From positions 1-59,445 of the IMG/VR virus record IMGVR_UViG_3300023435_000002: DNA of 59,445 nt. The stretch is one strand, 5' to 3'. This stretch comes from a virus. Below, one piece after another: positions 9,145 to 30,800 of the stretch. The notes beneath the pieces are model-generated. The model ran no database searches and had not been told where the DNA came from. It saw only the letters and a list, made by a program, of their open reading frames with translations. How positions within the stretch are numbered: position 1 is the stretch's first letter; each line of letters starts with the position of its first letter. Both the position numbers and the translations under genes were made by a program.

Positions 9145-9187
9145 TGGAAGAAGTACAAACTACTATACCAGATTTTGAATAATCATA

Positions 9188-10902: not shown

Positions 10903-11329
10903 TTTTTGGATTGGTACTGAGATGGAAGGTAGATTCACTGGATTAAGAACATTATTTATTAAGGGTGACCAAAATTTATCTGATATAGTTAAAATATTGA
11001 ATTCTTATAAAGTAATTTCTCATTTATATTTTGGTGCTGGACATCAATATCCTGTTTTTAGATATAATAGAATGATGGAGTTAGTTGATAAAGGATATGT
11101 AATAACATTTGAAATATCAAATGAATGTTTACAATTTGTACCACATCATATTATTAAATGTAAACAAATTCATATGATAGTTACATTTAAAAATAAGAAT
11201 GTTGCTTTATTAAAACCAACAGACACAATCAAAGTTGAGGATAGAACTAATGTTTATGCAACATCATTATGCACTATGTACCATACTGATAAAAATGTGG
11301 CATATGAAGGGGATGTGGTTATAAAATGA
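10895..11329 (+). CDS. Hypothetical protein (144 aa) inside the deazaguanine island
   Basis: ORF track. Overlaps both neighbours. I recognise no motif. Confidence 0.6.
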   Translation: MNDFWIGTEMEGRFTGLRTLFIKGDQNLSDIVKILNSYKVISHLYFGAGHQYPVFRYNRMMELVDKGYVITFEISNECLQFVPHHIIKCKQIHMIVTFKNKNVALLKPTDTIKVEDRTNVYATSLCTMYHTDKNVAYEGDVVIK

Positions 11330-12477
11330 GTACTGTATGGTATTTACCTTTGGAAATTGTAAGTAGTAGGTATACTCAACAACTTTGTGGAAAATGGATA
11401 CCTGACGGTATTAAACAATATATTAAATCAGAGGATACTTTTAAAGTAATAGAAGGTACTTCAATTGATACAGAAATTAAAGTTGGTTGTGTATTGGATG
11501 CAACTGGTAGAGGAATTTATAGTTTAACACAAGTTGCAAAGTTTTTAGAAGAAATAAGAAATGGTAATGTTAAGGATAATGATATTGTTTATATTCAGGA
11601 TATGTGGACACCAGGAATAGAGGCAATTCAATATGCAATTGATTTATATAAAATGAAATTAAAAATATATACAATGTGTCACGCACAATCTGTTGATACA
11701 TATGATTTTACATATACAATGAAGGAATGGATGCGACCAATAGAATTAGGTTATGACAAAATGTTTAAATATGGTGGAATTTTTGTTGGTTCTAGTATTC
11801 ATAAAAAACAATTAAGAAAAGCTGGATTTAAAGCACCAATTTTTATAGTGAGTTTACCTTTTTGTTATAATGAAGTTAAAGAAAGAATAAAAGATTTTCC
11901 TAAAAATAATGAAAACGCAATTGTATTTTCTTCAAGATTGGATTGGGAAAAGAAACCATTATTTATGTTAAGTGTGGTAAAAAAGTTTTTAAAGAAATAT
12001 CCTGATTGGAAAATATATGTTACAACTTCAGGGAAAGAAATAAGAAGTAATCAGGAAGGTGTTGTTAAAAAATTAAGGGATTATGCAAATAAAAATAGTA
12101 GATTTATATTAAAAGAGGGAATAACAAAAGACGAATATTATAGGCTGTTGTGTTCCTCAAAAATACAATTAAATACTTCATTGCAGGATTATGTTAGTTG
12201 GACAGTAATTGAATCTACCATATGTGAATGTGATATTTGTTTTCCAGACTTTAGAAGTTTTCCTGAGTTTATTCCAAATGATAGACTTTATAAAACTTGG
12301 AAAGTAAATAGTGTACTAGAAATATTAGACAAATGTATTACTAATCCTAAAAATCATGATTGGATAGCTAAAATATCTGACTTTGGTCGTTTAACAGAAT
12401 GTAATATTATGTGTAATGATATAAAGCATGAAGTAAATGTATGGGATTCAATTCCTGATTTTATAGATGCAAATTAA
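11326..12477 (+). CDS. Putative GT-B fold glycosyltransferase
   Basis: The C-terminal half (AIVFSSRLDWEKKPLFML...KIYVTTSG...) looks like a GT-B Rossmann domain. The call is weak and based on motifs only. Confidence 0.4.
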   Translation: MSTVWYLPLEIVSSRYTQQLCGKWIPDGIKQYIKSEDTFKVIEGTSIDTEIKVGCVLDATGRGIYSLTQVAKFLEEIRNGNVKDNDIVYIQDMWTPGIEAIQYAIDLYKMKLKIYTMCHAQSVDTYDFTYTMKEWMRPIELGYDKMFKYGGIFVGSSIHKKQLRKAGFKAPIFIVSLPFCYNEVKERIKDFPKNNENAIVFSSRLDWEKKPLFMLSVVKKFLKKYPDWKIYVTTSGKEIRSNQEGVVKKLRDYANKNSRFILKEGITKDEYYRLLCSSKIQLNTSLQDYVSWTVIESTICECDICFPDFRSFPEFIPNDRLYKTWKVNSVLEILDKCITNPKNHDWIAKISDFGRLTECNIMCNDIKHEVNVWDSIPDFIDAN

Positions 12478-13612
12478 AATTCCTGAATTGAATAGTAGAT
12501 ACATTCCTGTTCATGGTGGTTATGGTCATGTAGAAAAACATATGAATTGGTGGAGTGCTGATTCTCCTTATTTATATGAATTTGGATTATTTAATTTATT
12601 ACACTTTAAAAAAGAACAGATGAATATTATTAGAGGTCAATCTCCTAATATGTTTATTTTAACTGATAGTGGAGGTTTCCAGGTTGTTTCAGGTACTTGT
12701 AATTTGAATTGGGAAACTTCAATTTTACAACAAATTAGATTAAAAGCATCAAAAATATTTTCGTTAGATAAACCAACAGTACACCAAAAGGCATCAGAGG
12801 GTTCATTAACAAATTTTGTTTACATGAATGATACGGAGGCATTTGCAACTATTAAAGATAATTTTGATGTTGCTTTAAAACAATCAAAATATTTAAAAGA
12901 AAAATACCCTGAGGAATTTAAAAAATTTTGTTATATTATGCAAGGTAAATCAATTAATCAAATTGACTATAATATGAACCTATTTAAAGAGGAATTAGGT
13001 GGTGTTGATAAGTATTTGGAATATTTTCCTGGTGGAATAGTATATGCCTCAAAGGGTGGTGATAACTTATTTATTTCTATGGCAGCAAGACATGCCTATG
13101 ATAATTTTGTTTCTAAAGGAATTTATGTACATTTTTTAGGTATGGGTTCATTTTATAGAATGATTATTTTAATTAGAAATATGATTTCAACTTTTGATAG
13201 TTCAACATTATTACAAGGTGTACGAGTAAATGAATTTATTAATCCTTTAAATTTAAATAACACATTACAATTATCATCAGAAAATTTATCTGGTTTTACG
13301 AAGGAGTTTTGTGTATGTCCTGTTTGTAGTGTAACAGATTATCATGATTTAATGAAAAATGATAAACAAGAAATTGGAAGAAAATGTACAATGCACAACC
13401 TATGGCATTTATTAAAAATGAATATATTTTTGGATTCAATTCCTAAGGACAATTACACAACTATTATAATTAAAAATTTTAAAATAAGTGATGATGTTAA
13501 ACGTTCTTTAGAATTTTTAGATTGTTGCGACCAATATGGGTTTAACATTGCCTATAATAAGTATAAACACTATCTTAAAAAAGATATAACTAAACAAACA
13601 AGTTTATTTTAA
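12467..13612 (+). CDS. dpdA: DpdA-like DNA 7-deazaguanine transglycosylase (TGT superfamily)
   Basis: LTDSGGFQV catalytic motif and CVCPVCS...TMHNLWH zinc site. At 381 aa it has no PUA or C-terminal ArcTGT domains. Confidence 0.8.
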   Translation: MQIKIPELNSRYIPVHGGYGHVEKHMNWWSADSPYLYEFGLFNLLHFKKEQMNIIRGQSPNMFILTDSGGFQVVSGTCNLNWETSILQQIRLKASKIFSLDKPTVHQKASEGSLTNFVYMNDTEAFATIKDNFDVALKQSKYLKEKYPEEFKKFCYIMQGKSINQIDYNMNLFKEELGGVDKYLEYFPGGIVYASKGGDNLFISMAARHAYDNFVSKGIYVHFLGMGSFYRMIILIRNMISTFDSSTLLQGVRVNEFINPLNLNNTLQLSSENLSGFTKEFCVCPVCSVTDYHDLMKNDKQEIGRKCTMHNLWHLLKMNIFLDSIPKDNYTTIIIKNFKISDDVKRSLEFLDCCDQYGFNIAYNKYKHYLKKDITKQTSLF

Positions 13613-16896: not shown

Positions 16897-16982
16897 GCCC
16901 CAGTAGTTTAATGGTAGAACTCGGAAGGAGGTCGCTTCGGTGGACATGGAAGGAGACACAGGTTCGAATCCTGTCTGGGGCA
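16897..16982 (+). tRNA. tRNA-like gene (86 nt) with an aberrant central region; anticodon not assignable
   Basis: Canonical acceptor stem (GCCCCAG/CTGGGGC), D arm (GTTT-AATGGTA-GAAC) and T arm (ACAGG-TTCGAAT-CCTGT). The 37 nt between them contain a duplicated GGAAGGAG and no canonical anticodon arm. Confidence 0.45.
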
Positions 16983-17147
16983 TTGGGAACTAATACAGAA
17001 GCTAGGTAAAGTCACGTGAAAATCGTGTGAAGCCCAAATTGGGAGAGTGTAGTTAAGTCTTAGGACACTAGCTCTCCCTTTTCATACTCATGGGCAATGG
17101 GGAAATGTTCAGTTACCATAAAACAAGCAGACGAACCTAAGCCCATG
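16983..17147 (+). ncRNA. Structured RNA candidate E2 (three helices) directly 3' of the tRNA-like gene
   Basis: TTGGG/CCCAA (16983-17037, enclosing CACG/CGTG), GGGAGAG/CTCTCCC (17041-17078) and CATGGGC/GCCCATG (17089-17147). It is GC-richer than its surroundings and has no ORF. Confidence 0.4.
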
Positions 17148-17190
17148 TCATAATTATATTTTGTAACATATATATTATAACATAAAAGGT

Positions 17191-17198
17191 TTTATATA
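17191..17198 (+). promoter_or_regulatory. TATA-box candidate (AAAAGG-TTTATATA)
   Basis: A purine-rich BRE-like AAAAGG lies immediately upstream. It precedes the glycosylation island. Confidence 0.45.
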
Positions 17199-17255: not shown

Positions 17256-17795
17256 GTGGTATATTTTAATAAAGATAACAAGTGGGAAAAAAGAGTGATA
17301 GTGTCACCAAGTGGTGCAGATGAAAATTTCTTTAGAACATTAAAAATCAGAACTCAACAAGAAATAAATGATATAAGAGCTAGACTCAAGAAACTTATAA
17401 AAATAGAAAGTTATAAACCTACAGCATTAAATATTGATGACCAACCACTTGTAGATTCCCTTGTACGAATAAGAAAACTTAATCAATTTACATTAGATAA
17501 ATTAAAATGTATTCTTTTAAAAGATGAATATATTATTTGTCCACATTGTAATGGACTAATGTATAAAAAACCATTGGATGTATCATTTAAAAAAATAGGA
17601 AATAATATTATTCTAACAGAAAAACATAAATATACTAATATTGAATATATTTATAGTTGTCCAAATTGTGTATTTTTTATAAGAGAATGTGATTATTTAA
17701 ATGAAATAAGATATAAAGAATTAAGAGAATCTTTAATAACAAGTGGAGAAGTATTTGTACCAAATAAATTCGGAACGTATTATTATATCAAATGA
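17256..17795 (+). CDS. Zinc-ribbon protein, hypothetical
   Basis: ORF track (GTG start). CPHCNG...CPNC. Confidence 0.55.
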   Translation: MVYFNKDNKWEKRVIVSPSGADENFFRTLKIRTQQEINDIRARLKKLIKIESYKPTALNIDDQPLVDSLVRIRKLNQFTLDKLKCILLKDEYIICPHCNGLMYKKPLDVSFKKIGNNIILTEKHKYTNIEYIYSCPNCVFFIRECDYLNEIRYKELRESLITSGEVFVPNKFGTYYYIK

Positions 17796-18037
17796 GAAAA
17801 AAAGGGTCAGTAAATTATCAATATAAAATAAGACAAGTTGCTCAAAATCAACAAGGTACTCTTATACATGCTATTACAATCCCAAATTTTATTGCAGAAA
17901 AATTTAAAAATACAAAATTTATTTTAAAATTAGAAAATAATTGTATGATATTTAGTTCTGGATGTGATATAAAAGTTATGTCTAAAGATGATTCCTTTTT
18001 TGATAAATATACAAAAGAAAAGGAGATTGTACAATGA
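17792..18037 (+). CDS. Hypothetical protein, possibly AbrB-like
   Basis: GTLIHAITIPNFIAEKF weakly resembles a SpoVT/AbrB hairpin. ATGA overlaps. Confidence 0.5.
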   Translation: MRKKGSVNYQYKIRQVAQNQQGTLIHAITIPNFIAEKFKNTKFILKLENNCMIFSSGCDIKVMSKDDSFFDKYTKEKEIVQ

Positions 18038-19281
18038 CAAAAAATATAACTTGGCTTTCCGATAGTGCATTCTTACCAACTGGGTATGCCACTATGACTC
18101 TACATATTTTAAATGGATTATCAGAATTAAAAAATGAAGATGGAACTCCAAAATATAATTGTCATCAATTAGCTCATAATTATGTAGGACAAACTCAAAT
18201 TCCAGGAACTACTTTTGAAGATGGAACTAAAACTAACTTTACAATTCATGGAAATGGATTAAGACCATATTGTCAAGATATTATTACCCATAAATTACAA
18301 GAATTAGATACAGATGTATTTGTTACGTTATTAGATACTTTCATGGTGGCACCATTCTATCCACAACATGATTTTGGTAAAGCAAAAACAGTGTTCTATT
18401 ATCCAAGTGATGGTGGTTCAGGGTTACCTTTTGGATGTGAAACTACATTACAAAAAATGGATAAATCTATTTCAATGAGTAGATATGGAAAAGAACAAGT
18501 GGAAAGTATGCATAAAATTTCAAGTGGATTTATTCCACATGGTATTAATATAGATATGTTTCATCCATTAGAACCAGAACAAAAAATTGAAATTAAAAGA
18601 ATAATGGGAATTAAAGATAAGTTTGTTATTGGAACAGTCGCAAGAAATCAAGGTAGAAAAATGTTAGATAGAACAATTAAAGCCTTTGCATTATTTGCAG
18701 AGGGTAGAGATGATGTAGTTTTAGTTATGCATTGTGACCCTCAAGACCCAGCGGCAGTATCTTCTTTACCACAATTGATTGAAAGATATGGAGTACAGAA
18801 TAAAGTAATTTTTACTGGTATGAGATATTTTAAAGGATTTACATATGACCAAATGAATGACGTGTTTAATTGTATGAATATGTTTATACTCACCACTTCT
18901 GGAGAAGGTTTTGGAATGCCTATATTAGAAGCCATGGCATGTGGAGTTCCAGCTTTAGTAACTAACTATACAACCACTCAAGAGTTAGTTTTGGATAATG
19001 ATGCCGGATTGGGAATAAATTTAGTAGGAACAGAAGAAGACGAAAATCCAAAGGTCCATGAAAATGAAATAGTTAATGGAACAATAACTGGTGGATTTGC
19101 TGTTGAAAGAGGAATTTGTTGTTTAAAGGATGCAGCACTAAAAATGAAATTCTTTTATGATAATAGAGAAGAAGGAATACGAATGGGAAAAAATGGTAGA
19201 AAAGCAGTATTAAAACAATATGATTGGAAATTAATTATAAATCAGTGGGATGAAGTTATGGAGGAACTAACTAGATTATGA
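18034..19281 (+). CDS. Glycosyltransferase, GT-B (family 4-like)
   Basis: FVIGTVARNQGRK... and TTSGEGFGMPILEAMACGVPALVTNYTTTQELV (EX7E region). Confidence 0.8.
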   Translation: MTKNITWLSDSAFLPTGYATMTLHILNGLSELKNEDGTPKYNCHQLAHNYVGQTQIPGTTFEDGTKTNFTIHGNGLRPYCQDIITHKLQELDTDVFVTLLDTFMVAPFYPQHDFGKAKTVFYYPSDGGSGLPFGCETTLQKMDKSISMSRYGKEQVESMHKISSGFIPHGINIDMFHPLEPEQKIEIKRIMGIKDKFVIGTVARNQGRKMLDRTIKAFALFAEGRDDVVLVMHCDPQDPAAVSSLPQLIERYGVQNKVIFTGMRYFKGFTYDQMNDVFNCMNMFILTTSGEGFGMPILEAMACGVPALVTNYTTTQELVLDNDAGLGINLVGTEEDENPKVHENEIVNGTITGGFAVERGICCLKDAALKMKFFYDNREEGIRMGKNGRKAVLKQYDWKLIINQWDEVMEELTRL

Positions 19282-20465
19282 GTCAGGTAGATTTAGTTAA
19301 CTTAAATGAAAGAGGAATACTTGACCATGCGGGTGATAGAGTTCCAACAGGATTATTAAGTATAGCTAGTTCAATGAGAGCTAAAGGACATCCCACAGAT
19401 ATATATGATTTAAATAAATTTTCTGAGGAGGCTTTTGTTGAACATGTTAATTATAGTGAACCTGATGCAGTGGGAATATCAGTTTACACAAGTCCAATGT
19501 TAGAGAGAGCCAAAGAGTTAGCCGGAAGATTAAAAGGAAAAACTAGATTAGTAGCAGGTGGATATCATGCAACAGCAATGCCGGAAAGCCTATTACCATA
19601 TTTTGATGCAGTAGTAGTTGGAGAAGGAGAGAATGCACTTGAAAGAGCATTAAGAGAAGATGGAGTAATTCCAAGAGATACTCCAGACTTAAATGAAACT
19701 CCTAATATAAACTTAAATGAATTAGGGGAATATACAATTGATGGAAGACAAGGAACAATGATAACAAGTAGAGGATGTCCTTATTCGTGTTCATTCTGTG
19801 GTAATTTTTCAAGTAAAGTAAGAGATGAACCACTTTGGAAAATGCAAGAACAAATAAGACAATTAGAAAAAAATGGAGTAGAGTCAGTTTATTTTTTAGA
19901 TGACATGTTTACCTTACGAGAAGATAGAATGGATGAAATAGGAATGATGGCACAGAATGCTGGGTTGGCATTTAGAGCTACAACTAGAGCAGACTCTCTA
20001 AATGATAGTAAGTTAGATAAATTAAAATCAAGAGGATGTGAAGTATTAAGTTTGGGAGTAGAGAGTGGGAATGAAGAAATACTAAAGAGAATTAATAAAA
20101 GGGAAACACCAGAACAAATATATGAAGCAGTAAGAAAGGCTGGAGAGAGAGGAATAGATACTAAAGGTTTCTTTATAATGGGACTTCCAGGAGAGACAGA
20201 AGATACAGCTAGGGATACAATGAACTTTTCAAGAAAACTTAAAAAAGCAGGAATGAAGCAAGCAGACTTTTACTATCTTTGTCCCTTCCCTGGAACTCCA
20301 ATATGGAATTACCCAGAGAAATTCGGAATAACTATAAAAGATAGAGATTTTACTAAATATTTACAAGCCGGTCAAAGTGCAAGATGTGTAATAGATACTG
20401 AAGAATTAAGTGCACAAAGAATCGAGGAACTAACAGAGGAGGCTAGAAGACAATGGAAAAATTAA
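19278..20465 (+). CDS. B12-binding-domain radical SAM enzyme
   Basis: N-terminal Rossmann-like LLSIASSMRAKGH...AVGISVYTS...LVAGGYHAT, then ITSRGCPYSCSFCGN (CX3CX2C). Confidence 0.8.
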   Translation: MSQVDLVNLNERGILDHAGDRVPTGLLSIASSMRAKGHPTDIYDLNKFSEEAFVEHVNYSEPDAVGISVYTSPMLERAKELAGRLKGKTRLVAGGYHATAMPESLLPYFDAVVVGEGENALERALREDGVIPRDTPDLNETPNINLNELGEYTIDGRQGTMITSRGCPYSCSFCGNFSSKVRDEPLWKMQEQIRQLEKNGVESVYFLDDMFTLREDRMDEIGMMAQNAGLAFRATTRADSLNDSKLDKLKSRGCEVLSLGVESGNEEILKRINKRETPEQIYEAVRKAGERGIDTKGFFIMGLPGETEDTARDTMNFSRKLKKAGMKQADFYYLCPFPGTPIWNYPEKFGITIKDRDFTKYLQAGQSARCVIDTEELSAQRIEELTEEARRQWKN

Positions 20466-21697
20466 TAGTAATGATTATGGGACAGAATTGTGAAAAATTT
20501 ATTAAGATGTGTTTAGATAGTACTGAAGATGCAGATGCAAGAATATATTGTGATGGTGGTAGTACGGATTCAACTCTTGATATAGTAGAGAATAGAATAG
20601 GAAAGAAGTCAATAATAAGCAATAAGTATGACCAAGAGGATAAAAAGATGAATGGAAAGCAAAGGAACTTTTATTTAAAATATTTGAAAGAAAACTATCC
20701 AGACCATTGGGCACTTTGTTTAGATGCTGACGAAGTAGTAGAAGACTTGAGTAAGATTAAAGAGTTTATTAACGACCCATTAGGAGAAGGTTTGTTTTCT
20801 GTAAAGATGAGACATTTGATTCAGGATTTAGCGCATGAGGATGCAACTGCTGAAACTCATTATGTTCTAAACAGATTGTTTAAAATAAATAAAGCCGATA
20901 AATATCCAGAAGTTGAACATCCAGTGTTACAAGGTGAAGTAGTGGGAGGAACAGCTTGTACGACAATCTGGCATCTTGCGTACATTCCAAACTTATGGGA
21001 CATCAAGAAACGTTATGATAGCCACATGAAAAAGTCACAAATGCACACACCAGAGTATTTAGCAAGTTGGTACAAAGCACATTTGTTTGGTCAATATCCA
21101 ACTAAACAATTCAACCCTGTGGAGTTACCAAAAGTAATATTAGATGAATTTGGGCTTGATAAGGATGAACTTTATTTTATGAATAGAGGATTGGAGACTA
21201 AACATTTTATAATGGCTAAGCAATGGCACAACTTTTTTGATGATGATGATAAAATGTTTGAAGTATTAGAATTTGGTTGTGGTAGAGCACCGTACGGATA
21301 TGCATTTGATATGATTGATGAAGAATGTTATATGGGAATAGAATTAAGTAAATATGCAGTAGACAATTCATTACTTCGTCACGATGTTTTGCAAGGTAAT
21401 GTAATTGATTGTTACCTTGAAACAGAAGTTAAATTAGTGATAGCATTTGATTTATTAGAACATCTAAAATATAAAGACTTAGATAAAGCTATTAACAATA
21501 TAATAAACCATTCAAGTAAATACATTCTAATAAGTGTTCCAGTACTAGGAGACCCAAACCTAGAAGCAGACCCAACACATATAATCAAAGAAACTAAAGA
21601 ATGGTGGATTAAACAATTCACAGACAAAGATTTAAAATTAATTAAAACACCAGAACATTTTCTGTTTAAGGAGCAGATTATGATATTTGAAAAATGA
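20453..21697 (+). CDS. Fusion of a GT-A (family 2-like) glycosyltransferase and a class I SAM methyltransferase
   Basis: N-terminal part: IMGQNCEKFIKMCLDS...YCDGGSTDSTLDIV...LDADE. C-terminal part: VLEFGCGRAPYG...AFDLLEHL. Confidence 0.65.
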   Translation: MEKLIVMIMGQNCEKFIKMCLDSTEDADARIYCDGGSTDSTLDIVENRIGKKSIISNKYDQEDKKMNGKQRNFYLKYLKENYPDHWALCLDADEVVEDLSKIKEFINDPLGEGLFSVKMRHLIQDLAHEDATAETHYVLNRLFKINKADKYPEVEHPVLQGEVVGGTACTTIWHLAYIPNLWDIKKRYDSHMKKSQMHTPEYLASWYKAHLFGQYPTKQFNPVELPKVILDEFGLDKDELYFMNRGLETKHFIMAKQWHNFFDDDDKMFEVLEFGCGRAPYGYAFDMIDEECYMGIELSKYAVDNSLLRHDVLQGNVIDCYLETEVKLVIAFDLLEHLKYKDLDKAINNIINHSSKYILISVPVLGDPNLEADPTHIIKETKEWWIKQFTDKDLKLIKTPEHFLFKEQIMIFEK

Positions 21698-21846
21698 AAC
21701 TACAAGAATACTTAAAAAAATCACTAGAAGAAATATCTAAACAATGTATAACCACTGCAGAAATAGAATTAATATTAGACGATAAATTAAACGTAACTGA
21801 AAAAGGCCATCAAAGAATTTCTTTAACATTATACACAATAAAATGA
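21694..21846 (+). CDS. Small ORF, 50 aa, hypothetical
   Basis: ATGA junctions on both sides fill the 146-nt gap in the track. Confidence 0.4.
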   Translation: MKLQEYLKKSLEEISKQCITTAEIELILDDKLNVTEKGHQRISLTLYTIK

Positions 21847-22358
21847 ACTACACACATAGAGATTTAGCAATGGAAGAAGTTGAAAAGTTTAGAGAAGAGA
21901 ACTTCCCACAAAGAGTTTTGGAAATAGGCGCAGGGCATAATTCTTTTGAATATATTTTTAATGCTAATAGATATACTTGTATTGATAATCAATCTCAATA
22001 CAAAGGGAAATCAATAAAGATGGATGTTCATAATATGACATTTGAAGATGATGAATTTGATTGTGTATTTATGTGTCACGTTGCAGAACATTTTATTAAT
22101 CTAGCACAAGCATTTTCAGAAATAAAAAGAGTACTAAAAGATGGTGGAAAAGTATTTAGTATTACACCTAATAATTGTGAACATCAGATTTTAAAAGGTG
22201 ACGGAGACCATATATTTGTATTAGGACCAATGCAATGGATTAGATTATTAGCTAATTTAGGATTTAAAAATATTAAAAGTTATAAACAAATGACATGGAA
22301 AGAAGGACAGATTCTAAAGGAACAAGATTATAATATAATAACGGTGGCTGAAAAATGA
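21843..22358 (+). CDS. Class I SAM-dependent methyltransferase
   Basis: VLEIGAGHNS, FDCVFMCHVAEHF, LKDGGKVF. Confidence 0.75.
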   Translation: MNYTHRDLAMEEVEKFREENFPQRVLEIGAGHNSFEYIFNANRYTCIDNQSQYKGKSIKMDVHNMTFEDDEFDCVFMCHVAEHFINLAQAFSEIKRVLKDGGKVFSITPNNCEHQILKGDGDHIFVLGPMQWIRLLANLGFKNIKSYKQMTWKEGQILKEQDYNIITVAEK

Positions 22359-23212
22359 AAAGAATAGATGGACTAATTGATGTAATGATTTGTACAAGAG
22401 ATAGGCCCACAGAACTTGCACTATTACTTCAAAGTTTAAGAACTCAAACATATCAGAAGTTTGATTTGTATATAGTGGATGATTGTAGTGGTACACCACT
22501 GAATAACTTCCATTTTTTAGGTTGTATGATTAATAGATTAAAATTAGAAGGTCATAAAGTAAAGGTAGTTAGAAATGATTTTACATTAGGAGTAAGTAAG
22601 AATAGACAAAAGGCAGTTGATTTAGTTATGAAAGAAGGTTATGGAGAATTATGTGCTAGGTTGGATGATGATGTTATTGTGGAACCTGATTATTTTGAGA
22701 AGTTGCTAATAGTTTTAGATAAAGGATATGATTTTGCTTCTGGAATCACCTCCCCTTTTATGAATGAAAATCCAAAAAGAAAAACAGAATTTGTTAAACC
22801 TATAATCAACGAAGTCGTATTAGGGGAGGCTGGTGATATCATTAAGAATGGTGATGATTGTGGATATGAATACCTAGATACAGCAATCATACCCACTCAC
22901 CACTTTAGAAGTTGTGGAATATATAAAAAGACTATTCATGATGCAGGAGTAGATTATTTTAATCATTTTGGTAAACATGGATATAGAGAAGAACAAATTC
23001 TTAGTTTTAGAATGATACTTGCCGGATTTAAGATTGGTGTTCACACTACAGCAAATGCTAGGCATCTATTAACACCAAGTGGTGGAGAGAGATTTGCTAC
23101 TCAAAATGAAATGGTTCAAGAGAATGAAAAAGAATTACATAGATGGACAAAAGAACAATTTGAAAAGAATGGAGATTTTATTAGTAAATATACTGAGGAG
23201 GTTTTGAAATGA
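22355..23212 (+). CDS. Glycosyltransferase, GT-A (family 2)
   Basis: DVMICTRDRPTELALLLQSLRTQTYQKFDLYIVDDCS and RLDDD. Confidence 0.8.
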   Translation: MKRIDGLIDVMICTRDRPTELALLLQSLRTQTYQKFDLYIVDDCSGTPLNNFHFLGCMINRLKLEGHKVKVVRNDFTLGVSKNRQKAVDLVMKEGYGELCARLDDDVIVEPDYFEKLLIVLDKGYDFASGITSPFMNENPKRKTEFVKPIINEVVLGEAGDIIKNGDDCGYEYLDTAIIPTHHFRSCGIYKKTIHDAGVDYFNHFGKHGYREEQILSFRMILAGFKIGVHTTANARHLLTPSGGERFATQNEMVQENEKELHRWTKEQFEKNGDFISKYTEEVLK

Positions 23213-23508
23213 AAATAATTAATATTCCAAGACAATCTGGAAAAACAACTACTATAATAAAAGAAATGTTAAACACTAAAAATGACGTAATGGTTGTATT
23301 TTCTCAAATGTCAAAAGAACTTATAGTAAAAGATAATCCTACTTTAAAAAATAGAGTATTGACAATAGATGAATGTAGAGAAATTAATAGACTTAGAGGA
23401 TTTAGAAAAATACACATTGATAATTTAAATGAATGTTTAGGTATATTTGGAGAAGTAGGAATAGTCACAATGACTAACTATCCAGTAAAAGGAGAATTTG
23501 AAATATGA
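23209..23508 (+). CDS. Small P-loop NTPase
   Basis: PRQSGKTTTI Walker A motif. 99 aa. Confidence 0.5.
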   Translation: MKIINIPRQSGKTTTIIKEMLNTKNDVMVVFSQMSKELIVKDNPTLKNRVLTIDECREINRLRGFRKIHIDNLNECLGIFGEVGIVTMTNYPVKGEFEI

Positions 23509-23741
23509 AATTGCAATTAGAACTTTGGAAAGTAAATGGGATAGATGGAGGGACTAGGATTCGTTATAATAGAAGTGCTGAGTGGGAGCATATGAGTGAA
23601 GAATTGATGATTGGAGGATTTGCCCAAGGATTAACTACATTACCAGAATTGTGTAAATATGAACCCGAAAATGCTCCGCCATATATTGATGTATTAGTCA
23701 ATTTTATAATAGAAGGTAAAGTGGCGGTGTTGATACAATGA
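23505..23741 (+). CDS. Hypothetical protein
   Basis: ORF track. ATGA overlaps. Confidence 0.55.
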   Translation: MKLQLELWKVNGIDGGTRIRYNRSAEWEHMSEELMIGGFAQGLTTLPELCKYEPENAPPYIDVLVNFIIEGKVAVLIQ

Positions 23742-24874
23742 AAGTAAATTTGTATGGTTCAATCTGGGGCTGCTCAGGATATGCAAATCATACTAAACAT
23801 TTAGTTAATGCATTATGTGATATTGGTGTAGACGTTTCTCTACAATCACAAGTTCCTCAAGGATGGGAAAGGGTTGTTAATGATAATGAATTAAAGATGA
23901 TTACTAAACCAATTCACATGGATGGAATAGATTTAATGATTGACCTACCTACAAATTGGAAAATGGTATCTAGTGAGAGACAACCATTTATTGGATTCTT
24001 AGTTTGGGAGGGAGATAAAATTCCTGAGTATTGGATTGATTATTTATTAGATGATGCAGTTACACAGATTTGGGTTCCTAGTCAGCATACAAAGAAGGCT
24101 ATTGAGAATACTATAGCTAATATGAAAAATGACGAATTTCCAATATTATCTACAAACGAAATTAATATACTAAATAAAATAAAAATAGTACCTCACGGAG
24201 TAGATAAAGAAATATTCAAACCGGAAGAACCTAAAAAAGAGAAAGAAGTATTCACATTCATAGCTACTAAAGGCTGGAGGCACAACTTAGATAGAGGAGG
24301 TTTACAATATCTAATAAAAGCATACTCAGAAGAATTTACATCTAAGGATAAAGTGGAGATGTTGATTAAACTAAATACTGCTTATGGTATTCCAGATATT
24401 CAACAATTACTAACAGAATTAGATATTAAAAACGTGGATAAACCCAAGTTGTCATTTATTACTCAAGAGATGACTCTTAAAGACCTTAATAATTTTTATA
24501 ATTATGGGGATGTATTTGTTTCTACAACAATGGCAGAAGCATTTAATCTCGGAGGAATAGAAGCAATGGCTTGTGGTAAACCTACTCTACAAACTAACTT
24601 CGGTGGACAAACGGATTATATGACAAGGGATAATAGTTTTAAAATAAATAAAGGTGAAATGATTCCAGTTACTTGGGAAACAATGTATGAGGAAGTTTGT
24701 TGGTTTAAACCGGATATAGATGATATTAAGAAACAACTAAGATATTGTTTTGAGAATAAAGATATAGTAAAAGCAAAAGGAAAGAATGCAAAACTAACTA
24801 CTGATAAATGGACATGGATAGAGAGTGCGAAGAAAGCAAAAGTATGTTTAGAGGAGATTAATAATGACAAATAA
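23738..24874 (+). CDS. Glycosyltransferase, GT-B (family 4-like)
   Basis: VFVSTTMAEAFNLGGIEAMACGKPTLQTNFGGQTDYM. Confidence 0.75.
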   Translation: MKVNLYGSIWGCSGYANHTKHLVNALCDIGVDVSLQSQVPQGWERVVNDNELKMITKPIHMDGIDLMIDLPTNWKMVSSERQPFIGFLVWEGDKIPEYWIDYLLDDAVTQIWVPSQHTKKAIENTIANMKNDEFPILSTNEINILNKIKIVPHGVDKEIFKPEEPKKEKEVFTFIATKGWRHNLDRGGLQYLIKAYSEEFTSKDKVEMLIKLNTAYGIPDIQQLLTELDIKNVDKPKLSFITQEMTLKDLNNFYNYGDVFVSTTMAEAFNLGGIEAMACGKPTLQTNFGGQTDYMTRDNSFKINKGEMIPVTWETMYEEVCWFKPDIDDIKKQLRYCFENKDIVKAKGKNAKLTTDKWTWIESAKKAKVCLEEINNDK

Positions 24875-25013
24875 ACTAACACCACTGAAAGCAATTAAGG
24901 AATATTGTAAGGAACAATGTTGTGCCGGAGATAAACCATCCTGGAAGGGATGTTTAGATACGGATTGTCCACTTTATAGGTTCAGAACAGGCGTAAAACA
25001 AAAAGCTGAGTAA
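24864..25013 (+). CDS. Small Cys-rich phage protein, 49 aa (CCxG...CxxxDCPLYxFR motif)
   Basis: MTNKLTPLKAIKEYCKEQCCAGDKPSWKGCLDTDCPLYRFRTG. The motif is familiar to me from small phage proteins. Confidence 0.5.
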   Translation: MTNKLTPLKAIKEYCKEQCCAGDKPSWKGCLDTDCPLYRFRTGVKQKAE

Positions 25014-25109
25014 ATATACCACTATTTCTTTTTATAGTCTAAAACAGGCACTATTTATATATAGAAAATAACAAATAACGTAGTTCTATGACTAATCATG
25101 CATACAAAG

Positions 25110-25180
25110 TAGCACCACCAGGAATCGAACCTGGAGAGGAGGGTCATGAGCCCAACATGTTATCATTACATCATGGAGCT
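25110..25180 (-). tRNA. tRNA-Met(CAU)-like with initiator-type features; imperfect
   Basis: AGCTCCA..TTGGG-CTCATGA-CCCTC..CCAGG-TTCGATT-CCTGG-TGGTGCT-A. It has A1:U72 and three G:C pairs closing the anticodon stem. Against it: a U4:U69 mismatch, two mismatches at the top of the anticodon stem, and no GG in the D loop. Confidence 0.5.
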
Positions 25181-25183
25181 ATA

Positions 25184-25254
25184 CGCCTTAACTGAGAATT
25201 GAACTCAGGTCTCCTGCTCGACAAACAGGTATATTGCCACTATACTATTAAGGC
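25184..25254 (-). tRNA. tRNA-Asp(GUC)
   Basis: GCCTTAA-TA-GTAT-AGTGGCA-ATAT-A-CCTGT-TTGTCGA-GCAGG-AGAC-CTGAG-TTCAATT-CTCAG-TTAAGGC-G. All arms pair. No encoded CCA. Confidence 0.85.
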
Positions 25255-25288
25255 AAAATAATAAAAAATAAAAATAAAAATAAAAATT
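25255..25288 (-). terminator. Oligo-T tract array (minus-strand sense)
   Basis: T5-6 runs separated by single A residues, immediately downstream of the stop of 25302..25940. Confidence 0.45.
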
Positions 25289-25301: not shown

Positions 25302-25940
25302 TTAAGCCTCTCTTGAATATTCTACAGTTAGACCAGTTAAGTATGATTCGTCAACTTCTGCGTCTTCAAAATCATCATCAAAGTCTAAATCGTCTATAGT
25401 AACCTTAAATACATCAAGCCTTGATTTGTATTCTTCACTTTCATCATCCTCGATGAAGTAGAATACCTTTACGTCAAACTTAACCTTTAAGTTATTTTTA
25501 ACTTCTACATCTAAAACCTTGATTTCTGTAATATCCTTATAGCTATCTATATCAACACCGTATAAAACTAATGCATCATAAACTGCTCGCTTAAAATCTT
25601 TTGATTCAACTGACTCAGTTGCTAGTTCTAAAGCCATAGCTTCAGTAGATTCATCTTCGAACTCTGCTTTTGTAAGAATATATTCCCCAGAATAATCAGC
25701 CGACTGTCTATCAGTAGTATCATTAACATTATTGTTATTAACCACTGTATTAGTGCTTGCTGGTATTACTATATTACTAACTGCTTGACTTACGATTGCC
25801 ACAACTTCATCAGTTGTTGCTAATCCTGATAGGTCTACTTCTGGTGCATCTACTTTTATGTTATTTACTAACACAAACATTCCGAGTCCCAAAAGAACAA
25901 CCAAAACAATTGCTGTAATTATTAATCCTTTTTCTTCCAT
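25302..25940 (-). CDS. N-terminally anchored acidic protein
   Basis: ORF track. LIITAIVLVVLLGLGMFVLV transmembrane segment, and an acidic C-terminus. Confidence 0.65.
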   Translation of the reverse strand: MEEKGLIITAIVLVVLLGLGMFVLVNNIKVDAPEVDLSGLATTDEVVAIVSQAVSNIVIPASTNTVVNNNNVNDTTDRQSADYSGEYILTKAEFEDESTEAMALELATESVESKDFKRAVYDALVLYGVDIDSYKDITEIKVLDVEVKNNLKVKFDVKVFYFIEDDESEEYKSRLDVFKVTIDDLDFDDDFEDAEVDESYLTGLTVEYSREA

Positions 25941-26095: not shown

Positions 26096-27811
26096 TCAAC
26101 TTATTTTCCCTCCAGAATTAACTACAAAGGAACATCCTGAACCTTGATATATTATTTGACCTGTGGAATTAAAATCTAATGTAGAATTTATCTTAACGGT
26201 TCCACTACCAAGTAATGATAGATTTCCATTGATACTTATTGATGAATTTATGAAACAATTATCTGAACAATCTATATCCCAATTTCCTGAACCATCATAA
26301 TTACAAGTGTTTCCTACTGGTGCTGAAATGTACGTTACAGTTAGTTTAGGACCTTCTGCTGTTGGATGTTCTTTGGAAGCAAATTCTGAATAAAAATGAC
26401 TTGTTGAATTAAGCCAAAACCCTATATCGTTTTTTGAATTATCTATTACATATTGAAAAGAAGTATTTGTAACTGTAAAATTATAAATCGTTCCGATTGA
26501 AGATGTGGTGATTGTATCTTCTGGAGTAGTATTGCAATTTGTATAATTATCAAGAGAATTTCCACATGGCTGGTTATTCCATGTCAAATCGTTCTCATCT
26601 AGTGTATTTGTTCCAGTTGAATTTATCCAACCATTATAAAGATTATGCAAATTGATATTTCCAGATCCATCAATAGATGTTGTCTCTAACGATAATGTAG
26701 CATTTAATATTGTTGTTCCGGCAAGAGAAGATATATTAAAAGATAAATATGAGCTATAACTTTCATCATAATATTCATGTGCACATAGTAAAACCTCGTC
26801 GTCTGTACCACTATTCATTACTGAGTCTGGTGTTTCGCTATATACCCATCCGTCATTCAAATTCTCACTATCGGCATCTTGTAATATTACAATAGTTGAA
26901 TTTGCTCCAATATGTAATTCTTTTCCTAAATCAATTTTTATTATTTCTACGCCAATTCCTTTTTCAGATAATGACTCTTCTAACACCATATTCTTTGATA
27001 AATCTTTTTCAGATATATTTTTTGAAAATATTTTTATTTGATGACTTTCTCCATCCTTAATATCAATTTTAATCGAAGTATAATTATAGTCTAAACATTC
27101 AACGTCTGGATCATCTTTTGAATCTTTCTTGACAATACATTTTATTCCACTATTTTTTAGACTTTTAGCTTCTTCTATCTTTTTCCATGTGCTATCCTCT
27201 TCTACAAATCTAATTCCTGAATAAAGCGTCAAAGTTTTAGTCCCATCCTGATTGCTTATGGTTTCAGTTGTTGGAGTTCTTATAGATTTTATCTTAGCAT
27301 CCCAAACTGGGTCCAAGTATTCATCGTTTGCCCCGAATCCCCATTTGACTACATCATTTGGATTTTTCTTAATTTCAACTAGTCTAAATTCTTTTGTCGA
27401 GTATCTTGGAAATCTAAAAACATAAACTTTGTCTTGTATAGGTTTGGTGTCTTCAGTAAAATCTATACAACGCCAACCTTTGAATCCTATCCTCTGACCA
27501 TTCTTAAGAGTACATGCACATGAACCCGTGGCCGAACATCTACCATCCTTTGTAAATAAAGCATAGTCTTCTATATTGGGACTAAAATCTAATTGAATCT
27601 CATCTTGATTAAAAATATCCACATCATACCTTGTTGGATTTCTTACACTAAATTCAGAAATACATGGATTCTCATATGAACCTTCACAACTAAAATTACC
27701 AGTCTGGTCTGTTATTATAAATCCAAAGTTTGATTGAAGTAGAAAAAATAAACCTAGAATAGTTGTAACTGATGCAGCAACCCCAGCTCCAATCTTTGTC
27801 CAACGTCTCAT
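26096..27811 (-). CDS. N-terminally anchored or secreted sequon-rich protein (possible receptor-binding or surface protein)
   Basis: GAGVAASVTTILGLFFLL hydrophobic N-terminus. At least 15 N-x-S/T sequons read by eye, and many Cys. Confidence 0.65.
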   Translation of the reverse strand: MRRWTKIGAGVAASVTTILGLFFLLQSNFGFIITDQTGNFSCEGSYENPCISEFSVRNPTRYDVDIFNQDEIQLDFSPNIEDYALFTKDGRCSATGSCACTLKNGQRIGFKGWRCIDFTEDTKPIQDKVYVFRFPRYSTKEFRLVEIKKNPNDVVKWGFGANDEYLDPVWDAKIKSIRTPTTETISNQDGTKTLTLYSGIRFVEEDSTWKKIEEAKSLKNSGIKCIVKKDSKDDPDVECLDYNYTSIKIDIKDGESHQIKIFSKNISEKDLSKNMVLEESLSEKGIGVEIIKIDLGKELHIGANSTIVILQDADSENLNDGWVYSETPDSVMNSGTDDEVLLCAHEYYDESYSSYLSFNISSLAGTTILNATLSLETTSIDGSGNINLHNLYNGWINSTGTNTLDENDLTWNNQPCGNSLDNYTNCNTTPEDTITTSSIGTIYNFTVTNTSFQYVIDNSKNDIGFWLNSTSHFYSEFASKEHPTAEGPKLTVTYISAPVGNTCNYDGSGNWDIDCSDNCFINSSISINGNLSLLGSGTVKINSTLDFNSTGQIIYQGSGCSFVVNSGGKIS

Positions 27812-30800
27812 TATGAAACCTCTATTACTAAATCTGTTCCATTAAAATATATACTTGATTCTTGTGCATCACCATAATATGTTCTTGAATCTTCTGCAAT
27901 ATAAACATTCTCTATTTCATCAGAAGTACTTCCAATATTCTCTCCATTAGTATCTAAATATCCTCCTAGTTGTGGAGTTGTATCCGTCATTATACTTTGA
28001 AGAGCTGTACTTAAACAAGCCCCAGTATTTAAACAAAATTCTGTAGAATTAACTTGCGCATCAAAAGTATAAAGACTTGCATCTGTAAATTGTAGAATGT
28101 CGTTTGTACTATCAAATTCTATTTGAGAATTTTCATCTAAAGCAGAATTAACAAATACTAGAATAGAATCAGCATTAACACCAACAATTCCTATTTTATC
28201 TTTTACACCAAAAAGATTGCTACCTAATGCAGAAGAATATCCATCAACCATTGGGAATCCCGCACCAAGATAGTTTATGAAATTAAAATATGATGAGCCA
28301 TCTCCTATATATGAATCAAAAGATAAATTAGTATAACCCAATGCTGTAAAATTAGTTGTTACTAAATTACTATCTATAGTCAATTCGCTAACTCCAGACC
28401 TGTAAAGAGTTGTATCTGATGACAATCCAAATGAAATCCCATTTGCACTATCTGTTGTATCTACTAATGAACTTAACCATAAAGCACTTGTATCTGCACC
28501 TTCAACTACAATTCCATAATCAATTAATGCTCCAGTTTGGTCTCTAATCATTACTCCAGCATTAGCCAATCCACCTACACTATCAGCAACATTAACACCG
28601 AAAGACAGTCCTTCATTTCTAGGAGTAACTCCATCATAATCAGTTATCTCTCTAGTTATATCTAATCCATATAATGAACCTCCAAATGAAGTTGTATCAC
28701 CTGCATTTGAATCTGTCCATGTTACATAAGCTTTTAATCCTTCATAAATAACTCCAGAAACTCCAGACACACCATCAGCTCTACCCTCTACACCTATTAA
28801 TGCAAAAGCACTTGCAATGTTATCTTCTGCTAGTCCTAACACACCTAATCCATGACCAGAGTTTGTGTTTCCTTCACTTTTTATATATCCATATAAACTA
28901 ATAGGAACAGCACCATTTGCAAACTCTCCAGTATAAGAATTTCTTGTGGCATAATTTATTCCAGCAACTCCATCTTTTTCATATAACAATGACATATTCC
29001 CAACAATATCTACTTTCGATTGTGGTGTTGCAGTTCCTATTCCTAAATCACTTGTAGTATTATAAATTGAAGTTGCAGTAGAAACCCAAGGAGAACTCCC
29101 ACCACTCTCAAAAGCGTCATACGTAGCGTTATATGTTGAAAGATAACTTGCATTATTCAAAGAGCCAGCATAGCTTTCATTATAAGTTGTTGTCCAACTT
29201 GCATTATTAGCAGTCACTATTCCATCAGTATAATCATTGGCTTCTGTTAAATTTCCATCTATCATTCCAGTAATTTCTTCTTTAGTAAACATATCAGCAA
29301 TTTTTAGGAAAACGGAATTTATCCAACTACTCTGACTAAAATTGACATCATCTGTATAAGTATTCGCTGGAGTTGTTTGGTTATACATCCATTTATCATA
29401 ATCTAATGCAGACCAGTTTGAATTAAAACTTGCCTGAAAATCCACAAAACTAAAATCCCCACCACCGGCAACGGCAGAACACTGGATAGTTCCATTTGGA
29501 TATACTCCAATCATTTTATCATTTCCTGCACAATTTGTTTCTACAATATTATTAAATCTTGCACTTTCATTAGTATCTATTGTGTGTGCACCAGTGATAA
29601 ACCCTAATCCTTCCACATAAGTTTGGTCTACTCCGAGAGTTTGATTATAACCCCATAAATAACTCGCATAAAGTGTATCTGCATAAGTTTGATTCCAACT
29701 AGAATTATCTCCTGCAGCAGAAGCATAAGTTGCGTTGTATGTTGAACTCCAAATGTCATTATATAAATTATAAGTTGCAGTTGTTTGATTATAATCCCAC
29801 TCAATTCCTGAATAAAGTAGATTTGCTCTAGTTTCATTCCAACTTAAATTCCCTCCAGTTGTTCCAATCGGAGCATATAATGTGTTAGCAAATGTCTGAT
29901 TCCAAGAAGAATTGTCTCCAGTTGATGCTGCATATGTCGCATTGTATGTTGAGCTCCAAATATCATTGTATAGAGTATAAGTAGAGGTTGTTTGATTATA
30001 ATCCCACTCAATTCCTGCATACAATAAATTTGCTCTAGTTTCATTCCAACTCAAATTTCCTCCTGTGGAACCTATTGCCGCATAAAGTGTATTTGCAAAA
30101 GTTTGATTCCAAGAAGAATTATCTCCTGTCCCACCTGCTGCATAGGTTGCATTATAAGTAGAGTAGTCACCAATCAAGTTTCCAGTAAAGTTTAAATCTC
30201 CGTTTACTACAAGTTTTTGATTCGGAGAAACTTCATCTATTCCTACATTTCCACCCATAATTGCCATTGAATTTGGTTGTTCAAAATTGTATTCGCTTGA
30301 GTTTAATCCTATTCCGAATGAACTTGTACCTGATACATTAATCCTGTTTCCCATTGCTGTTGAAATTCCACCAGACGCTATAGTGTTTACTCCAGTTGCA
30401 AAGTCAAAAGCCTTTTCTGCTTTAACTCCAGAGCCTATTGCAAAAGAATTTATTCCGGAGGCATTCGCATTGTCACCTATTGCTACGGCAAAATCACCAG
30501 TTGCACTTGCACCTACACCACCTACAACTAATCCACCACCATTTATAAGTCTTATATCTAGCTTAGCTGTTGGTTCTGTTGTACCTATTCCAATATTACC
30601 ACTATCATAAGAAATATTTGCTCCGTCTGATGTCCATTGGCTAGAAATTTTATTATCATAAGTTGTGTTGAAGGTTGAGCCACTCATATCACTTAAACAA
30701 TTTCCACCAGTTATACAAAAGTCTAGGGACGAATTAACTTGTGCATCAAAACTATATCCCCCACTTGCATCTTCAAACTTCATAATATCATTTGTTCTAT

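Follow-up and report, generated by a model that had tools for sequence, protein, structure and literature searches.

A probable glycan-assembly module with a B12-domain radical SAM enzyme, conserved in an uncultured lineage of tailed viruses

The window analysed here is the whole 59,445-nt stretch of IMG/VR record IMGVR_UViG_3300023435_000002, and the element under study is an island of glycan-related genes at 17256-25013 on its plus strand. Because it carries an exact 99-bp direct terminal repeat at 1-99 and 59347-59445, the window represents a complete viral genome of ~59.3 kb, terminally redundant or circularly assembled. The island comprises 12 co-oriented open reading frames (ORFs) that overlap at 11 of 11 junctions, nine of them of the ATGA type, and encodes four glycosyltransferases (GTs), a fused and a free methyltransferase (MT) and a radical S-adenosylmethionine (SAM) enzyme with a B12-binding domain. 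Its features, with Pfam scores and E values, are as follows.

17191-17198, plus strand: TATA-like motif TTTATATA, 58 nt 5' of the first ORF; promoter role putative.
17256-17795, plus strand: 179-aa ORF with two CxxC pairs, zinc-ribbon-like by eye, outside the conserved module.
17792-18037, plus strand: 81-aa ORF directly 5' of GT1a.
18034-19281, plus strand: GT1a, GT4-like GT of the GT-B fold; Glycos_transf_1 69.5 bits (cut-off 26.4), 3e-19; phrog_2170 2e-37 end to end.
19278-20465, plus strand: B12-binding radical SAM enzyme of class-B architecture; B12-binding 73.8 bits (cut-off 32.1), Radical_SAM 106.4 (cut-off 29.5).
20453-21697, plus strand: GT2-MT fusion; GT-A DAD motif at D91/D93, class I SAM MT motif I at G275/G277.
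21694-21846, plus strand: 50-aa ORF filling an apparent 145-bp gap, ATGA-coupled at both ends, strain-specific.
21843-22358, plus strand: free class I SAM methyltransferase; Methyltransf_11 53 bits, 5e-14; motif I LEIGAG.
22355-23212, plus strand: GT2, of the GT-A fold, with a DDD motif; Glycos_transf_2 54.7 bits (cut-off 23.3), 1.5e-14.
23209-23508, plus strand: 99-aa ORF with a Walker-A-like GKTT motif; AAA_14 E 0.004, below cut-off.
23505-23741, plus strand: 78-aa ORF, no family match, strain-specific.
23738-24874, plus strand: GT1b, GT4-like GT of the GT-B fold and last gene of the conserved frame; Glycos_transf_1 34.2 bits (cut-off 26.4), 2e-8; phrog_2170 1e-25 end to end.
24864-25013, plus strand: 49-aa Cys-rich ORF, last of the block, called as a gene on a near-identical contig.

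The island proteins are soluble, since none contains a 19-residue Kyte-Doolittle window of at least 1.6 that would mark a membrane-grade hydrophobic segment. A domain scan of every window ORF of at least 188 aa finds no sugar-nucleotide synthesis gene, flippase or oligosaccharyltransferase (OST), and tblastn of the window with the accessory sugar genes of relatives finds nothing; the island must therefore draw on host sugar donors. The initial annotation had described a single co-oriented, overlap-coupled block encoding GT4 enzymes at 18034 and 23738, a B12-binding radical SAM enzyme at 19278 with the motif CPYSCSFC, a GT2-MT fusion at 20453, a methyltransferase at 21843 and a GT2 at 22355, all without an obvious membrane anchor, and each of these assignments is upheld by the junctions, the hydropathy and the domain evidence given here and below. 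Two of its details fared less well. The TATA-like box behind which the block was said to lie is present, but TTTATATA occurs 23 times in the window against 15.3 +/- 3.6 expected, and its occurrence at 17191 therefore identifies no promoter. The protein at 23209 named as a P-loop protein does carry the GKTT motif, but its AAA_14 match falls below the cut-off and it is strain-specific.

Relatives were defined as the inspected contigs carrying the radical SAM enzyme or the GT2-MT fusion, and gene content was scored wherever the fetched stretch (+/-10 kb) covers it; contigs are numbered with the prefix L. GT1a and GT1b are distant paralogues with 22% identity, and both retain the EX7E motif (EGFGMPILE in GT1a, EAFNLGGIE in GT1b), whose glutamates E291 and E299 are invariant in an alignment of 10 GT1a/GT1b sequences. 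GT1a is 43-48% identical in most related viral loci, with the lowest value, 30%, in L103. Every related viral locus fetched far enough to cover GT2 has a copy at 35-68% identity; in the PDB the GT2 sequence matches PglI alone, and NCBIfam adds weak matches to AglG, PglI and EpsD. The free methyltransferase has a 63% identical copy in L001-L003. The 179-aa ORF has no match in Pfam, NCBIfam, PHROG or PADLOC and a homologue in related loci only in identical strains, and the 99-aa ORF has no homologue in relatives outside the same strain. Together with the 50-, 78- and 49-aa ORFs, they are by these comparisons strain-specific filler outside the conserved module. The 81-aa ORF is the sole small ORF of the island weakly kept in place among relatives, with 29-38% identity at the same position in L089, L095, L101 and L262 by tblastn and no family match. 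PADLOC defence models match none of the GTs and return only a generic match of the radical SAM enzyme to the candidate family PDC-M51A.

The window copy of the GT2-MT fusion scores just below the Pfam thresholds, with 23.2 bits against 23.3 for the GT2 domain and 18 against 27 for Methyltransf_23. The fusion is nevertheless confirmed, because PHROG matches cover both halves (phrog_27380 for the MT half, 1e-10), because it belongs to a family of more than 600 metagenome homologues, and because its AlphaFold2 model, at a predicted local distance difference test score (pLDDT) of 92, resolves into two domains, a GT-A half and a Rossmann MT half. The top 120 homologues are all full-length at 52-68% identity, most homologues pass both PF00535 and PF13489, and D91, D93, G275 and G277 are invariant in the family. 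The closest PDB matches of the GT-A half are SunS and ThuS, soluble enzymes that glycosylate peptides directly. That half also has counterparts in a viral structure library, among them GT and GT-MT proteins from cyanophages and from giant viruses; a GT of phage Che8 is a weak match. Its MT half is structurally similar to many SAM methyltransferases, including the natural-product and sugar methyltransferases DnrK, MtfA, DesVI and BelI.

The radical SAM enzyme carries CPYSCSFC at residues 167-174, with C167, C171 and C174 invariant across the family alignment, and is modelled by AlphaFold2 with a pLDDT of 89.9 and a predicted template modelling (TM) score of 0.86. Foldseek places MgmA, AprD4, TsrM, OxsB, TokK and CysS about equally close, at TM-scores of 0.70-0.79, and sequence profiles rank AprD4 first, then MgmA, followed by OxsB, TsrM and TokK. 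AprD4, a sugar 1,2-diol dehydratase, binds no cobalamin, and MgmA C-methylates a protein glutamine (PMC12931638). The enzyme reaches no NCBIfam cut-off, the best being TIGR04013 at 123 bits against 251, and lies outside the named equivalogs AprD4 (69.5 against 500), BchE (82 against 481) and MgmA (79 against 360), as it does outside HpnP/R, PhpK and the GenK type. C-methylation, initially put forward as a possibility, gains plausibility from the strength of the PF02310 match but does not stand as a specific assignment, the nearest solved relatives being the non-cobalamin AprD4 and the glutamine methylase MgmA/QCMT at about equal distance. We know of no diagnostic sequence motif for base-off cobalamin binding.

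Gene context is a more informative guide to the function of this enzyme. Metagenomes supply ~100 homologues, each of ~400 aa, at 40-60% identity, and in four of four archaeal or DPANN cellular cases examined the homologue is surrounded by genes for nucleotide sugars or glycans. The neighbours are DegT, GT2 and UDP-GlcNAc 2-epimerase in L009, DegT and an epimerase in L014, a cytidylyltransferase-phosphoenolpyruvate (PEP)-mutase fusion and an epimerase in L013, and nucleoside diphosphate (NDP)-sugar synthesis genes, Wzx and a sulfotransferase in L091. This context points to a sugar as substrate over a protein, an antibiotic or a tetrapyrrole, and we conclude that the protein is a predicted sugar- or glycan-tailoring radical enzyme. 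The database names 'BchE' and 'YgiQ' attached to its homologues are probably misleading. In L013, a 224-kb contig of an archaeal metagenome-assembled genome (MAG), the homologue stands directly 3' of the cytidylyltransferase-PEP-mutase fusion (8685-11260), a pairing that we take to be reminiscent of Fom1/Fom3 of fosfomycin biosynthesis and that would presumably suggest C-methylation of a cytidine monophosphate-activated phosphonate destined for a glycan. Some viral homologues of the island enzyme (P0062, P0092 and P0099) carry inteins.

The order GT1a, radical SAM enzyme, GT2-MT fusion, a variable middle, GT2 and GT1b forms a frame that recurs in ~14 distinct viral contigs besides the window after removal of duplicates. 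It is present wherever the radical SAM enzyme is at least 36% identical (in one case 30%) and on two contigs reached through the fusion, and the contigs that bear it are viral by their terminase, portal, baseplate, ParB-methylase, PolB and PCNA genes. Where the radical SAM enzyme is identical, the island is identical too, as in near-identical strains, while cellular genomes carry radical SAM homologues of at most 41% identity without the other island genes. The comparison with related genomes that the initial annotation had proposed, asking whether the island is accessory, thus finds the frame conserved, and its view of so large an island as an oddity of a 59 kb virus gives way to a frame common to a whole uncultured lineage. 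These comparisons mark the island as what appears to be an old viral module, shared by an uncultured tailed-virus lineage that encodes PolB and PCNA. A blastn search of the island against 50,697 phage records gave no match, and IMG/VR searches with the 571-aa protein described below and with the baseplate protein returned no close relatives. The contigs returned by a PolB-anchored search for island-less relatives end ~2.5 kb past PolB.

Between the fusion and GT2, the window contains only the 50-aa ORF and the free methyltransferase, whereas relatives fill this middle with sugar genes. The closest relative, whose fusion is 68% identical, has an E1-type thiamine pyrophosphate (TPP) enzyme, a NUDIX protein, a 4,6-dehydratase-like enzyme, an epimerase/reductase and a short-chain dehydrogenase/reductase. 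Beyond these, a nucleotidyltransferase, both E1 subunits and a small GT2 occur on a contig assigned to the bin of a Promethearchaeota MAG. L089 carries a second (SPASM) radical SAM enzyme, a split transketolase-/E1-like enzyme, a nucleotidyltransferase, an epimerase and a PfkB kinase, and the middles of relatives also include additional GT2 and MT genes. By gene content, these middles appear to be cassettes for making or tailoring a donor sugar, as in surface-glycan loci, and the window island would be the minimal state of a frame-plus-cassette locus. The initially reported absence of sugar-nucleotide genes, flippase and OST stands for the window; the lack of sugar-nucleotide genes does not extend to most relatives, which encode nucleotide-sugar tailoring enzymes within the frame. 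In deoxysugar pathways, the combination of a 4,6-dehydratase, an E1 alpha/beta pair and a reductase is suggestive of a branched deoxysugar, which the cassettes of relatives may make. A frame-plus-cassette layout is typical of exposed-glycan loci under diversifying selection. A phosphonate pathway in relatives, an idea raised by the split TPP enzyme and the cytidylyltransferase, was rejected, as no viral island contains a PEP mutase. Taken together, the island is very probably a conserved viral glycan-assembly module in minimal form.

Candidate acceptors for such a glycan are encoded next to the island on the opposite strand.

27811-33786, minus strand: 1991-aa fibre-/adhesin-like protein with DUF2793, DUF2341 and YadA_head domains, candidate acceptor.
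26096-27811, minus strand: 571-aa protein with an N-terminal hydrophobic anchor, CBM96 (9e-9) and 15 cysteines, a possible second acceptor or partner.

The 1991-aa protein begins with a Sec-type signal peptide (MDKKILVIAFMCIVMLGVASA, with cleavage before LP) and contains 70 N-x-S/T sequons against 35.2 +/- 5.1 in shuffles (z = 6.8; reached in 0 of 2000 shuffles). The 571-aa protein has 16 against 9.4 (z = 2.5) and a 138-aa anchored protein reaches z ~2.5, while the capsid, tube, portal, tape-measure and baseplate proteins show no sequon excess. Sequon enrichment is a signature of N-glycosylated surface proteins. Among cultured phages, relatives of GT1a at ~25% identity lie in head modules in three of five cases (phiPsal1, Mae-JY09 and S-CBS4); the phiPsal1 order of major capsid protein, GT1, SAM-MT, GT2 and neck is a miniature of the island, and Mae-JY09 and S-CBS4 are similar. 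In TJE1, a nucleotidyltransferase-kinase-epimerase-MT-GT cassette precedes the terminase. Three consecutive minus-strand genes, at 27811-33786, 26096-27811 and 25302-25940, have N-terminal signal or anchor segments and run convergent to the island. Viruses assembling in the cytoplasm do not usually encode a giant fibre or adhesin that is secreted.

Under the reading we favour, four soluble transferases, two of them GT4-like GT-B enzymes of the retaining type and the other two GT2 enzymes of the GT-A fold, would add sugars in sequence on the cytoplasmic side from host-made nucleotide sugars. The MT domain of the fusion and the free methyltransferase would O- or N-methylate sugars, and the B12-domain radical SAM enzyme would perform one radical tailoring step on a sugar, either C-methylation or an AprD4-like dehydration. 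The product would be a short decorated oligosaccharide on the virus's own structural or surface proteins, foremost the 1991-aa protein, reached by direct protein glycosylation or through a lipid-linked intermediate handed to a host flippase and OST. We infer the order of action, the donors, the radical SAM chemistry and the acceptor. This scheme, in which a methylated oligosaccharide is assembled stepwise on the cytoplasmic side and carried by structural or surface proteins of the virus, has, in our estimate, about an even chance of being correct. Viral proteins are favoured as the acceptor because of the head-module context of the phage GT1a relatives, the SunS/ThuS match of the fusion and the sequon-rich neighbours; the assignment of viral structural or surface proteins is itself evenly poised, with the adjacent sequon-rich 1991-aa protein as the prime candidate.

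Several observations weigh against this assignment. At a TM-score of only ~0.3 across the two-domain query, the SunS/ThuS match may be no more than the likeness common to GT-A enzymes. Two of the five cultured-phage GT1 homologues (TJE1 and S-EIVl) lie outside head modules, and the island in the window is co-oriented with replication and DNA-modification genes, not with structural genes. The sole partly covered fibre-like ORF in a relative (L004, Laminin_G_3) shows no sequon excess (z = 0.8), and the 1991-aa protein, having a Sec signal, may be N-glycosylated outside the cell by a host pathway, independently of the island. Glycan, donor and acceptor are all predictions from the genes.

The DNA itself has to be considered as an acceptor, as a 7-deazaguanine DNA-modification module (6785-13612, plus strand) lies 4-10 kb upstream of the island.

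6785-7204, plus strand: QueD/PTPS.
7204-8616, plus strand: QueE-like radical SAM enzyme with an intein (PT-HINT and Intein_splicing domains).
8743-9144, plus strand: phosphoribosyltransferase.
9188-9853, plus strand: GTP cyclohydrolase I (FolE).
12467-13612, plus strand: TGT/DpdA-like protein, just before PolB.

Neither Pfam nor tblastn with a relative's QueC detects this enzyme in the window, and L089 does have it; a module lacking QueC would predict a carboxy-deazaguanine-type base and not a preQ0-type one. A 383-aa protein at 11326-12477 (plus strand) is paired with the TGT/DpdA-like gene, and the pair is 67% and 63% identical in L099 (306-2610). This ORF was considered as a fifth GT and rejected, Glycos_transf_1 reaching only E 0.0026 and hhalign against the island GT-B profile giving a probability of 0.5%; its best match in a PDB search is only E 0.045. 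Part of the intein-containing ORF 7204-8616 has a counterpart elsewhere in the window, a free-standing HNH ORF at 43358-43951 that shares 38% identity with it over 98 aa.

A DNA hypermodification role, in which the GTs would place a methylated glycan on a modified viral base, perhaps tied to the 7-deazaguanine module, and so block host nucleases, is encouraged by the co-orientation of the island with FolE, QueD, the QueE-like enzyme, the TGT/DpdA-like protein and PolB, a layout shared by L089, L099 and L101. A C5 DNA methylase lies directly 3' of GT1b in the L004 group (L004 17795-18448) and adjoins GT1b on the opposite strand in L117. Phage GT-A and GT-B enzymes are known to place mono- to trisaccharides on 5-hydroxymethylcytosine (5hmC) (10.1101/2023.12.21.572611), and glycosylated 7-deazapurine small molecules exist (10.64898/2026.04.15.718813). 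Phage 5hmC glycosylation needs, however, a C5 methyltransferase together with a TET-type oxygenase or a ThyA-like hydroxymethylase (10.1101/2023.12.21.572611), and Pfam finds no TET/5mYOX, ThyA-like hydroxymethylase or C5 methyltransferase in any window ORF of at least 188 aa, nor does tblastn of the window with a relative's C5 methyltransferase find anything. No hydroxyl-bearing base is predicted, L001, L004 and L007 have no TGT within 5-10 kb upstream of the island, and the 383-aa neighbour of the TGT/DpdA-like gene is unrelated to the island GTs. Four GTs, three methylating functions and the deoxy- and branched-sugar cassettes of relatives also exceed any known DNA glycan, and DNA as the target is improbable. 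A particular form of this idea, in which hypermodification would need no oxygen, is more doubtful still: the B12-domain radical SAM enzyme would either stand in for the O2-dependent TET-type step or act on the sugar, and the GTs and MTs would assemble their methylated oligosaccharide on a modified base, possibly together with the 7-deazaguanine module.

Remodelling of the host surface is possible, though unlikely: the enzymes would act on a host lipid-linked oligosaccharide or envelope precursor and alter the S-layer or surface glycan, which could serve superinfection exclusion, altered adhesion or defence evasion, with viral proteins not the main target. The mix of GT4, GT2 and MT, joined in relatives by an epimerase, a dehydratase and a nucleotidyltransferase, resembles cellular surface-glycan clusters, and the cellular radical SAM homologues reside in such clusters, one with the Wzx flippase. 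The PglI match of GT2, with its weak AglG, PglI and EpsD family matches, agrees with this role, as does the solubility of the enzymes, for in the Pgl pathway peripheral GTs acting on lipid-linked acceptors often have no transmembrane segments. A host-surface role has also been proposed for glycan genes of archaeal viruses (10.1101/2021.07.29.453957; PMC13452462). The window and all related islands nevertheless contain no initiating phosphoglycosyltransferase, flippase, polymerase or OST, the phage homologues stand in head modules, and the retention of the full four-GT frame in otherwise very different viruses suggests a self-contained viral glycan. Production of a soluble small molecule, a glycosylated methylated metabolite such as a deazapurine glycoside or an aminoglycoside-like compound, would accommodate the resemblance of the fusion MT half to DnrK, MtfA, DesVI and BelI, the proximity of the radical SAM enzyme to AprD4 of apramycin biosynthesis and the phosphoribosyltransferase within the deazaguanine module. 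It is highly improbable given that no transporter, regulator or scaffold-forming enzyme is present, that the module is kept in lytic-type tailed viruses beside morphogenesis genes and that viruses of this size offer no precedent. The captured host exopolysaccharide fragment that the initial annotation had raised is contradicted by the conservation data. Each enzyme is generically similar to exopolysaccharide and lipopolysaccharide enzymes, but a recent capture is ruled out because each gene finds its best homologues in viruses (37-68% identity in close relatives, against at most 41% for the radical SAM enzyme of cellular MAGs), because synteny extends across the ~14 distinct viral contigs besides the window, and because composition in the island is the same as in the remaining genome. 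With catalytic motifs invariant and genes tightly ATGA-coupled, a functionless recent acquisition is scarcely credible.

Virus-encoded glycosylation is known experimentally in giant algal viruses and a few actinobacteriophages. Phage-encoded GTs were shown by experiment to glycosylate the virions of Che8, Corndog and Myrna (PMC12363180, citing Freeman 2023). The cassettes of these phages and of phiPsal1 resemble the island in combining soluble GT-B and GT-A enzymes with a SAM methyltransferase and in having virion proteins as presumed acceptor, and the phiPsal1 GT1 is homologous to GT1a (25% identity, 5e-22; same PHROG-level family). They consist, however, of one to few GTs within the head/tail module of phages with bacterial hosts, whereas the island is co-oriented with replication genes, and the searches made found neither a B12-domain radical SAM enzyme nor a GT2-MT fusion in the actinobacteriophage and phiPsal1 cassettes, while the island has both. 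The likeness thus sets experimentally shown virion glycosylation beside a module known from its genes. In PBCV-1, the capsid is glycosylated in the cytoplasm, A064R is a GT-GT-methyltransferase and A111/114R is part of the machinery (PMC7826918). As in the island proposal, this is virus-encoded, organelle-independent, stepwise synthesis of a methylated glycan on a structural protein, with a transferase fused to a sugar O-methyltransferase. PBCV-1 differs in being a giant eukaryotic virus without a radical SAM step, and the likeness comes without a detected sequence relationship, none having been searched for.

Phage DNA glycan clusters likewise deploy several viral GT-A and GT-B enzymes in series on host NDP-sugars, and some island relatives share their adjacent C5 methyltransferase; the window has no base-hydroxymethylating enzyme, which defines these clusters, and its island has more GTs and tailoring enzymes than any described DNA glycan system (10.1101/2023.12.21.572611). 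The archaeal Agl and bacterial Pgl systems share with the island the mix of GT4 and GT2, a methyltransferase (an AglP-like role) and, in relatives, nucleotide-sugar enzymes, and the position beside a sequon-rich secreted candidate acceptor fits Agl/Pgl N-glycosylation; unlike them, the island has no lipid-carrier-initiating enzyme, flippase or AglB/PglB, and none of its proteins has an equivalog-level Agl/Pgl match. The island radical SAM enzyme shares the Rossmann B12-type domain, the core and the CxxxCxxC motif with the class-B enzymes MgmA/QCMT, TsrM, TokK, OxsB and CysS and with the look-alike AprD4. At ~400 aa it has the simple scaffold of MgmA and AprD4, with only 19-22% identity to each of these enzymes, AprD4 included. 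In the literature searched, no account of the frame or of a B12-type radical SAM enzyme within a viral glycosylation module was found, an absence that is no proof.

With this module, viral glycosylation would reach tailed viruses of an abundant uncultured lineage whose hosts are probably archaea; a fixed transferase frame is combined there with a swappable sugar-tailoring cassette, reminiscent of serotype loci, and with a radical SAM enzyme of cobalamin type. Should its product sit on the virion or an adhesin, glycan-based host recognition or immune evasion would be indicated in archaeal viruses. The soluble enzymes would also make a compact set for producing unusual sugars, methylated or branched, and virome surveys that list members of this radical SAM family as auxiliary metabolic genes named 'BchE' or 'YgiQ' have probably misannotated them.

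The genome has a GC content of ~30%, and its genes form two divergent blocks across the window. The minus-strand block contains an HK97-type capsid, a portal-MuF fusion, a split large terminase, a tail tube, a tape measure and baseplate proteins, and the plus-strand block contains PCNA, a family-B DNA polymerase (PolB), the 7-deazaguanine module and the glycan island. This complete genome with its HK97-type capsid, portal, terminase, tail tube and tape measure bears out the initial description of the island as virus-encoded, and its description as a glycan-building set of soluble proteins is supported too. Further features are listed below.

45461-46324, minus strand: HK97-type capsid protein.
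25109-25255, minus strand: canonical tRNAs Met-CAT and Asp-GTC, at the convergence point right after the island.
53113-53183, minus strand: canonical tRNA Ala-TGC.

PCNA, PolB and the archaeal MAG bins of relatives suggest an archaeal host, binning of viral contigs being weak evidence. The bins are Heimdallarchaeaceae for L090 and Promethearchaeota for L262, and the nearest cellular radical SAM enzymes come from MAGs of an unclassified archaeon or DPANN. Membership of the Asgard-associated Verdandivirus was rejected, that family having genomes of ~20 kb without replication genes. The large terminase (50925-52288, minus strand) consists of two overlapping ORFs, an ATPase half at 51518-52288 (Terminase_6N) and a nuclease half at 50925-51521 (Terminase_6C). 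For a 121-aa ORF at 54057-54422 (minus strand), the match to the anaerobic ribonucleotide reductase NrdD is confined to the very C-terminal end of the profile (positions 524-562 of 562; E 4e-10); the matched region holds the glycyl-radical site, and the product may be a 'spare-part' type protein, which hints at an anaerobic host. Just upstream of the island, an Rfam tRNA match at 16897-16982 (plus strand; 50.7 bits, E 9e-10) has ~15 extra nt in the anticodon-arm region, and ARAGORN calls no tRNA there even with its intron option; it may be an intron-containing or otherwise atypical tRNA. Downstream of this match, the stretch 16983-17150 forms stable hairpins by folding.

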